Assembly (NCBI GenBank): GCA_910583945.1
Contig: CAJTYF010000001.1
Coordinates: 16,274-80,273 of the forward strand
Length of the DNA stretch: 64,000 nucleotides
Reading direction: 5' to 3'
From: an uncultured Bacilli bacterium
GTDB lineage: Bacteria; Bacillota_I; Bacilli_A; RF39; UBA660
Shown here: positions 14,600 to 15,252 of the stretch, piece after piece
Layout: every line of letters begins with the position of its first letter
How positions within the stretch are numbered: the stretch's first letter is position 1
Made by a program: the position numbers and the translations under genes
The notes under the pieces: model-generated
The model's database searches: none
What the model was told of the DNA's origin: nothing
What the model saw: the letters and a program-made list of their open reading frames with translations, nothing else

Positions 14600-14703
14600 A
14601 ATGTTTCTCGCTCCCGGATGGCTAGCGAGTAATAAATTATTCCAGACGACAATGTTTCTCGTTTCTGAGTGGCTGGCGAGTAATAAATTATCTCAGTCGA
14701 AAA
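14600..14703 (+). repeat. tandem 51-nt direct repeats (2 copies plus a partial third), each with an internal hairpin. Candidate type III antitoxin (ToxI-like) RNA
   Basis: aatgtttctcgCTCCCGGATGGCTAGCGAGtaataaattatTCCAGACGAC (14600-14650) repeated at 14651-14701 with about 80% identity. GC-rich relative to the surroundings. Each repeat has an internal ctcgct..agcgag inverted repeat. Confidence 0.4.
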
Positions 14704-14710
14704 TGGTTGG

Positions 14711-14746
14711 AAAACTTTATCTTTGTGGTAAAGTTTTCTTTTTTTG
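14711..14746 (+). terminator. rho-independent terminator between repeat array and toxN-like ORF
   Basis: aaaactttat-ctttgtgg-taaagtttt 9-bp stem followed by cttttttt. Confidence 0.55.
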
Positions 14747-14775
14747 TATGGTACACTTCTGTTGGAGTTGATACA

Positions 14776-15252
14776 ATGATAGTTCAAACAGAATATTTAT
14801 ATCATATTAAAGATGAATTTTTTGATATTATTCAAGATGAGAATCTAATGACAAATCATGAGTGTGGCAAAAAACGTCCTACCTATTTTACCATTAAAGA
14901 TAATGATATTTTATGGTTTATTCCATTAAGTAGCAAAAGTAGAAAAATATCGAAAAATAAGAGAGAATAAAATCCAAAAATATGGTAAATGTGACGCAAT
15001 ATTAATTAGAGAAATATTAGGAAAAGATACCGCCATTTTACTTCAAAATGCTTTTCCAACACTAGAAAAATATATAGATCATAATTCATATAATGAATGA
15101 TGGAAAACCAGCTAAAGTAATTACTTCCATCAAAGAAGAAATTTTAAATAATTTTAAATATCTTATGGAATTAAAAAAACGTGGAATAAATTTATTTTTT
15201 GCGGATATAGATAAAATAAAAGAGCAAATGTTAAACGAAATGAGTAAATAAT
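14776..15252 (+). pseudogene. ToxN/AbiQ-family type III toxin (endoribonuclease), disrupted by two frameshifts
   Basis: MIVQTEYLYHIKDEF...KKRPTYFTIKDNDILWFIPLSSKSRK matches the ToxN/AbiQ N-terminal region (FxPLSSPK motif). The protein continues in two other frames (IQKYGKCDAILIREILG... and ...KEEILNNFKYLMELKKRG...EMSK*), about 160 aa in total. Confidence 0.45.

Follow-up and report, generated by a model that had tools for sequence, protein, structure and literature searches.

Type III toxin-antitoxin systems combine an RNA antitoxin with an RNase toxin. In ToxIN, described from Pectobacterium atrosepticum and Bacillus thuringiensis, and in AbiQ-antiQ of Lactococcus, a tandem-repeat RNA antitoxin is followed by a terminator and by an endoribonuclease that processes its own antitoxin; the repeats of these systems are 34 to 36 nucleotides (nt) long and are present in 2.9 to 5.5 copies. 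The CptIN systems have the same order of elements (promoter, about two tandem repeats, terminator, toxin) and have in common with ToxIN and AbiQ a pseudoknot RNA, a related protein fold and the mechanism of action, while the RNA-protein complex is a heterotetramer in CptIN and a heterohexamer in ToxIN/AbiQ (PMC4627078). Published cptIN loci are all chromosomal (PMC3401426) and carry 1.9 to 3.4 copies of a 40- to 48-nt repeat (PMC3401426, Table 2). Kill/rescue behavior and cleavage of the repeat RNA are known only for the systems of E. rectale, R. torques and C. catus (PMC3401426, PMC4627078). ToxIN and AbiQ have anti-phage activity, whereas the cptIN loci that were tested gave none in E. coli (PMC3401426). 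Loci with complete cptIN repeats and terminators but with toxins of only 45 to 101 amino acids (aa) were already listed by Blower et al. in 2012 (PMC3401426). The analyses described here concern a locus of this general kind in a 64,000-nt stretch of DNA (termed the window; contig CAJTYF010000001.1 of assembly GCA_910583945.1, from an uncultured Bacilli bacterium). Two complete 51-nt repeats and the beginning of a third (14599-14708) are followed by a terminator (14709-14746) and then by a toxin frame (14776-15251) distributed over three reading frames. This order of a type III locus had been proposed in an initial annotation and was borne out by Tandem Repeats Finder, by a terminator search and by a three-frame reading. 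The locus is very probably a chromosomal CptIN module that has been inactivated and is decaying stepwise, with the relic being fixed in the species. It is an ordinary CptIN relic and not a new system.

The toxin sequence was repaired by joining 14776-14937, 14939-15082 and 15084-15248, generating a protein of 157 aa; the three frames had been recognized initially, with an estimated length of about 160 aa. This repaired protein matched the NCBIfam model NF047359, 'type III toxin-antitoxin system CptIN family toxin', over positions 2-150 of the 150-position profile with a score of 152 bits (E 1e-44; cut-off, 90), and the 64-aa open reading frame (ORF), as encoded, scored 63.6 bits, which is under this cut-off. 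The sole solved structure matched by sequence was CptN of Eubacterium rectale (PDB 4RMO; Rao et al. 2015, PMC4627078), with an E value of 6.8e-15 over residues 8-151, and homology with this toxin extends over the full length. By these sequence matches, the toxin is assigned to CptN and not to ToxN or AbiQ. A search of 5.8 billion protein clusters detected 2597 homologues, of which the top ones were intact, 155 to 160 aa long and aligned over their full length; the repaired protein was collinear with its relatives from end to end (alignment A1). The closest homologue, P0001, was 83% identical to the repaired toxin. No protein with a higher identity was present among the 5.8 billion clusters, and no intact close allele was found there.

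All three pieces of the cptN pseudogene are located on the plus strand. Piece A (14776-14937, aa 1-54) is in frame 1 and ends with the catalytic-motif residues P-L-S-S-K; the motif P-L-S-S-(R/K) is common to this toxin and to E. rectale CptN, with Lys here and Arg in the latter. Frameshift 1 (14935-14938) is a +1 insertion located right after the Lys54 codon of this motif, giving AAAA in place of the AAA of intact relatives, and the frame-1 ORF then continues out of frame to a TAA at 14968-14970, resulting in a 64-aa product. Piece B (14939-15082, aa 55-102) is in frame 2, which has a TGA at 15098. It is terminated by frameshift 2 (15083-15084), a second +1 insertion that produces CAT-AATT-CAT instead of the CAT-ATT-CAT, with a single A, of other strains. 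Piece C (15084-15251, aa 103-157 and the stop) is in frame 3, with coding sequence to 15248 and a TAA at 15249. These positions were fixed by comparison with the DNA of the P0001 locus (L001) and of other strains. The initial annotation was correct in reporting two frameshifts, now located as two single-A insertions, but had placed them at about 14965 and 15100, some 15 to 30 nt from their actual sites and approximately at the resulting stop codons. It had also described an N-terminal ORF of 65 aa with the signature FIPLSSKSRK; the ORF is present but encodes 64 aa, and the SRK portion of the signature is out of frame, as relatives have FIPLSSKVEKY. In E. rectale CptN, the corresponding Ser-Ser-Arg is part of the catalytic triad, with additional residues of the active site (Asp81, Ser85 and Tyr104) being located downstream (PMC4627078). 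As the part with these downstream residues is absent, the 64-aa product should be inactive. A CptN-homologous toxin, tandem same-strand upstream repeats, an intermediate terminator and an H-type pseudoknot unit, all features of CptIN loci, were present, while an intact, expressible toxin ORF was absent due to two +1 insertions that end the product after 64 aa; because of this broken ORF, the locus was classed as a CptIN pseudogene or relic rather than as a working member of the family.

A total of 14 strain sequences, including the window, were aligned. Frameshift 1 was present in all 14 sequences (13 other strains plus the window), while frameshift 2 was present in only three (the window, L087 and L088), being absent from the 11 other aligned sequences and also from L091 and L098. 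The exact 64-aa stump was found on 20 contigs (NCBI, ENA and Logan), six variants shared the same truncation point and the same out-of-frame tail, SRKISKNKRE, and a 52-aa C-terminal ORF was found on 42 contigs. Independent ENA, Logan and NCBI assemblies exhibited the same flanking genes, namely, a 154-aa gene upstream and an SDF-family transporter gene downstream, and the same locus was present in assemblies GCA_948720295.1, GCA_948617485.1, GCA_948589935.1, GCA_948990035.1 and GCA_949021105.1. A separate 10-bp deletion at 15140-15149 was observed in L111 and is a third, independent lesion of the toxin remnant. Excluding L110, whose upstream sequence is not homologous, there were 6 variable sites in the 112 nt of the array, 5 plus the 10-bp deletion in the 476 nt of the toxin remnant and 4 in 709 nt of the transporter gene, all of which are small numbers. 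Substitutions between strains were mostly non-synonymous (3 of 4 in the 14-sequence alignment, plus variants among the protein records). Frameshift 1 occurred first and became fixed in the species, with further lesions arising later in sub-lineages. The earlier proposal of a degenerating module was upheld, and indel sequencing errors are excluded by the presence of frameshift 1 across independent assemblies and by the polymorphism of frameshift 2 among strains.

Two minor observations were made on the strain contigs. The deletion in L111 removes one copy of a tandem duplication of AATTTTAAAT (2.1 copies; Tandem Repeats Finder, 15140-15160). Two short contigs, L098 (1-370) and L110, had a toxin remnant identical to that of the window from about 14795 and a different array upstream, which in L098 consisted of four or more units of a 49-nt type; differences extended to the terminator and to the first codons. 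This junction is due either to recombination between cptIN loci or to an assembly chimera at the shared stretch.

The repeat array of the window was detected by Tandem Repeats Finder at 14597-14705, with a period of 51, 2.1 copies, 81% matches and a score of 148. When the whole window was searched with a profile of the family repeat units, there were two matches only (14599-14649, E 1e-16; 14651-14700, E 1.6e-9), both being array units, indicating that this genome does not carry the repeat as a common intergenic element. When one genome per species was scanned, 345 loci encoding relatives of the toxin were detected, and the best 80, in which the toxin was matched over essentially its full length, were utilized for comparisons. 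The window's own locus is not among these 80, which are from metagenome-assembled genomes of the gut, with the labels uncultured Bacilli, Tenericutes or Erysipelotrichaceae. In about 50 of these loci, Tandem Repeats Finder reported repeats with a length of 49, 50 or 51 nt, and the unit profile matched in 79 of the 80 upstream regions searched. For the 74 loci with enough upstream sequence, the array adjoined the toxin in every case, with two tandem units in 70 loci, one in three and four in one, and the units were all of 49 to 51 nt and of the same sequence family. As the array adjoins the toxin in all of these loci and the profile matches the window only at the array, the repeat is tied to the toxin gene, and the possibility raised initially of a common intergenic element unrelated to the ORF was discarded. 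A search for the same repeat next to an intact ORF in related genomes, as suggested in the initial annotation, was successful: in the P0001 locus, an intact toxin gene is preceded by a terminator and, before this, by 2.2 copies of a 51-nt repeat having the same sequence. While the array of the window (51 nt, 2.1 copies) is 3 nt above the range of repeat lengths published in 2012, 49 to 51 nt was found in every close relative examined; the length of 51 nt, regarded at first as unusual, is normal for this CptIN branch.

A second set of CptI-like units was observed about 200 to 350 nt upstream of the toxin-proximal array in five intact relatives (L024, L029, L033, L042 and L084), with L042 having six units in three pairs and L084 four in tandem. 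These extra sets may be the remains of neighboring cptIN loci or duplications of the array.

A minimum free energy (MFE) fold of the whole region as a single strand recovered the terminator and, in unit 1, the S1 hairpin. As this method cannot represent pseudoknots, covariation was counted in an alignment of 119 distinct units (alignment A2), with stem S1 formed by columns 9-13 and 27-31 and stem S2 by columns 16-20 and 44-48. Standard pairs occupied 94.9% of the cells of the two stems. Both-sided changes were detected in 8 of the 10 pairs and covariation in all 5 pairs of S2; the S2 pair 20-44, for example, was A-U in 60 units and G-C in 59. None of 500 shuffles matched the observed percentage paired or the covariation score, and slid controls reached a maximum of 48.5% paired. 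The covariation points to an H-type pseudoknot as the antitoxin unit, with the fold seen in the CptI crystal structure. A UGG in columns 21-23 of the alignment (14619-14621 and 14670-14672 in the window) was invariant in 119 of 119 units. This UGG is located after the 5′ strand of S2 and ahead of the 3′ strand of S1, has no pairing partner and probably represents a protein or tertiary contact.

The units were compared with the 45-nt CptI of E. rectale, AAGUUUACCACUGACCGAUAUGUGGUAUAUAAAUGGUCGGGUUGA, whose sequence was derived from a primer in PMC4627078 (Table 2) and paired by hand. Common to both were a 5′ tail of the form AA(A)UGUUU (AAGUUU in E. rectale, AAAUGUUU here), a short first loop, the AUAAAU core of a long A-rich loop and a 3′ GA end; in the E. 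rectale crystal, this GA end carries, on A45, the cyclic phosphate that cleavage leaves behind (PMC4627078). The units of this branch are longer, at 49 to 51 nt, with the extra length being mainly a junction of 4 to 6 nt that links the 5′ strand of S2 to the 3′ strand of S1. This junction, which holds the UGG, has no clear counterpart in the hand-paired E. rectale CptI. The long loop also differs, consisting of 11 nt here and 9 nt in E. rectale.

Both units of the window array, on the plus strand, contain departures from the family pattern. Unit 1 (14599-14649; 51 nt) matched the profile with 56.6 bits and has an S1 stem of 14607-14611 paired with 14625-14629 and a pseudoknot stem S2 of 14614-14618 paired with 14641-14645. 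The latter contains a C14615-A14644 mismatch, one of only two unpaired cells at that pair among the 119 units; in other strains, the same position is C-G (L104) or, in most, U-G. Unit 2 (14650-14700; 51 nt) scored 33.8 bits, the lowest among the toxin-proximal units of the 80 loci. Its S1 stem pairs 14658-14662 with 14676-14680 and includes a U14662-G wobble that is unique for that pair among the 119 units, while S2 pairs 14665-14669 with 14692-14696; some other strains have an A-A mismatch at 14668/14693. The beginning of a third unit, AAATGGTT (14701-14708, plus strand), provides the sequence 3′ of the GA/AAAUG junction that ends unit 2, and AAATG(T)T... immediately precedes the terminator in every relative. 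By analogy with E. rectale CptI, processing would be expected to fall at GA/AAAUG, releasing units 14599-14649 and 14650-14700, with the last junction being supplied by 14701-14708. Two other strains, L106 and L107, have three complete 51-nt units instead of two (at a site equivalent to 14644/14645 of the window); array copy number, therefore, varies within the species.

Upstream of the array, relatives have a promoter of the form TTGAC(A/T)-17 nt-TATATT, with 10 or more matches out of 12 in 63 of 74 loci, usually located about 32 nt before the first unit and followed by a small hairpin. Only a remnant of this promoter is present in the window (14539-14564, plus strand). A −10 element, TATAGT (14559-14564), could be aligned by eye with the family TATATT, but the −35 position contains only TTACA (14540-14544) with a 14-nt spacer to TATAGT, and the family TTGAC(A/T) at 17-nt spacing is gone. 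The best promoter-like site in the window, TATACA-18-TATAGT at 14530-14559, scored 9 out of 12 and is not at the homologous place. A small leader hairpin, GCATTTT / AAAAGTGC (14571-14587, plus strand), was read by eye between the −10 element and the first repeat; by the same reading, most relatives have a hairpin in the corresponding position, for example, TTGCATTTGAAAAAGTGCA in L026.

The array is followed on the plus strand by an intrinsic terminator (14709-14746), consisting of a hairpin (14709-14739) with a 13-bp stem, GGAAAACTTTATC/GGTAAAGTTTTCT, and then TTTTTT. This was the sole terminator-like site within 14300-15400, as compared to an average of 0.4 in shuffles, and was without any variable position across the 14 aligned strain sequences. 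Relatives contain a homologous GAAAAC...GTTTTC hairpin with a T-rich tail after the array. A strict criterion, requiring a T5 run and a hairpin of −6 kcal/mol or better, was satisfied by 45 of 79 relatives. As the remaining relatives exhibited, by eye, the GAAAAC...GTTTTC hairpin with TTTT-N-TTT(T) tails, this criterion was judged to be too strict rather than the feature to be missing. Direct reading of the sequence detected a ribosome-binding site, GGAG (14764-14767, plus strand), separated by 8 nt from the start codon ATG at 14776.

Other strains of this species (L092-L097 and L100; L100 1-1887) have a group II intron directly upstream of the toxin remnant, as evidenced by Rfam matches for domains D1-D4 and V/VI and by a 435-aa reverse transcriptase/maturase. 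The insertion site is between 14743 and 14744, inside the T-run of the terminator, and homology with the window restarts exactly at 14744. These contigs end within the intron, so that the visible sequence stops short of any upstream array. Class C bacterial group II introns habitually insert just after terminator hairpins. Insertion of the intron in the T-run of these strains provides independent support for the hairpin as a real terminator.

In intact relatives, a strong sigma-70-type promoter would transcribe the two and a bit 49- to 51-nt CptI repeats, and a leaky terminator after the repeats would hold toxin mRNA at a low level in comparison with the antitoxin RNA. The repeat RNA would be cut at GA/A junctions by the CptN endoribonuclease into single units, each of which would fold as an H-type pseudoknot and bind the toxin in an inactive ribonucleoprotein; the read-through, cleavage and complex formation are extrapolated from E. 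rectale CptIN. In the window, the insertion right after Ser-Ser-Lys terminates the protein after 64 aa, ahead of the active site and of the remainder of the fold, and the toxin cannot be made. The second insertion, further downstream, was acquired later and in this sub-lineage only. The conserved −35 element has been lost, and the substitutions in both repeats weaken pairs that are conserved elsewhere in the family. The window copy thus differs from E. rectale CptIN in being a pseudogene with two +1 insertions and in lacking the −35 element.

Several observations weigh against complete inactivation and decay of the module. At conserved positions, the repaired protein stands out only mildly, with 12 deviations at columns that are at least 80% conserved as compared to a family mean of 4.6, a number equalled or exceeded by 7 of 117 relatives, and this measure was not relied upon. 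Aside from the two insertions, the reading frame remains open, and some residual function is conceivable on sequence alone. As the frame is otherwise open and the departures at conserved columns are only moderate, the inactivation is considered to be recent. Furthermore, the terminator is invariant and the array has been kept in all strains, even with three units in L106 and L107, and hence the RNA part could still be under selection.

The last of these points leads to the alternative that the toxin is dead but the CptI array has been retained as a functional orphan antitoxin RNA, which might, for example, neutralize related CptN toxins on other elements. Retention of the array and terminator in every strain with contig coverage, the invariant terminator, the two strains with three units and the continued presence of the −10 element and leader hairpin are all in keeping with such a role. 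The family −35 element, however, is missing, variable sites are denser in the array than anywhere else in the region (6 in 112 nt, with L110 left out), and several of the array variants break or weaken conserved pairs. In addition, CptI antitoxins are highly specific for their own toxins (PMC4627078), and a profile search detected no second cptN gene or array within the 64-kb window. An orphan antitoxin was, therefore, considered unlikely, and decay of the whole module is the preferred reading.

A still less likely alternative is that frameshift 1 is regulatory rather than inactivating, with low levels of toxin being produced when ribosomes slip by +1 on the A-AAA-A run. The AAAA sequence would allow tRNA-Lys to re-pair perfectly in the +1 frame, frameshift 1 is fixed in the species and, in 11 of the 14 strains, it is the only lesion in an otherwise open frame of 157 codons. 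There is, however, no sign of frameshifting in the family, as a single frame sufficed for the alignment of 80 of 80 related loci with the repaired toxin and the sequence of L001 at this site is AAA-G. Reading of the sequence identified no stop or rare codon after the run that might stall the ribosome, although no formal search for stimulatory elements was made. Further disabling lesions have also accumulated, with frameshift 2 in three sequences and the 10-bp deletion in L111, the −35 element of the promoter is lost, and the mostly non-synonymous nature of the strain substitutions fits neutral drift. Slippage was thus judged very improbable, and frameshift 1 is read as an inactivating lesion.

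It is hardly credible that the toxin is intact in the organism and that both frameshifts are sequencing or assembly errors. The initial annotation had allowed for indel errors of this sort, and both lesions are indeed single-A insertions at short A-runs (A3 to A4 and A1 to A2), an error type of some platforms. Against this reading, the identical 64-aa product is found on 20 contigs, with the six variants having the same truncation point, and frameshift 1 is at the same base in assemblies from different samples (ERR3199594, ERZ14864795, ERZ12290374, SRR36181220, GCA_948720295.1 and others). Frameshift 2 tracks strain lineages, accompanying T14538 in two of its three carriers and occurring in no strain without frameshift 1, and a neighboring gene of the same strain is broken by a substitution (T13709) and not by an indel.

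Membership of the ToxIN or AbiQ-antiQ systems, as proposed in the initial annotation, has practically no chance of being correct: the locus order is the same and there are weak matches to Pfam ToxN_toxin (PF13958; E 0.044, 14.4 bits, cut-off 25) and to the PADLOC AbiQ model (E 0.005, 15 bits), but both are below the level for family assignment, the Rfam ToxI model (RF02519) had no match on the repeats, and the CptIN model was matched over its whole length and the only structure matched was that of a CptN. As these Pfam, PADLOC and Rfam results were sub-threshold, the ToxIN/AbiQ assignment was dropped in favor of CptIN. The only match of this model was a weak one (18.9 bits, E 1.6, against a gathering score of 50) on the opposite, minus strand, close to where the transporter gene has its 3′ end (15308-15325), and was judged to be due to chance.

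The window itself carries little weight, being an inactive copy of a family that was described in 2012, whose structure was solved in 2015 and for which loci with shortened toxins and full repeats were already known. It does provide a natural decay series of a type III module, in which the toxin was affected first, followed by the promoter, more toxin lesions and weakened RNA pairs. The large set of strongly covarying 49- to 51-nt CptI units widens the range of known lengths, and the invariant UGG junction would merit a structure. We also raise, as a conjecture that is rather improbable, that this CptIN branch, widespread in uncultured gut Bacilli-type genomes and with a systematically enlarged pseudoknot whose invariant-UGG junction is lacking or nearly lacking in the 45-nt CptI, could have an altered RNA-toxin assembly, for example, in stoichiometry or through a new RNA-protein contact, and that the array of a dead toxin may also persist as an orphan antitoxin RNA.

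The window is chromosomal, encoding, among others, PolA, RsmH and a penicillin-binding protein with PASTA domains, in agreement with the chromosomal location of all published cptIN loci and with the Firmicutes-type context in which CptIN is found. Searches with Pfam and PADLOC detected no defense island or mobile element, the neighboring genes being housekeeping genes or without matches, and ARAGORN detected no tRNA genes in the window. Decay also affects accessory genes in the vicinity of the relic. The second gene upstream (13361-13990) is a single 209-aa ORF in most strains but is divided into ORFs of 116 and 61 aa in the window and L087 due to a nonsense substitution of AAA to TAA (T13709). 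The 154-aa gene (14001-14465) is interrupted in L088, where 1 nt has been inserted after 14297. The 209-aa and 154-aa genes are both without known domains.

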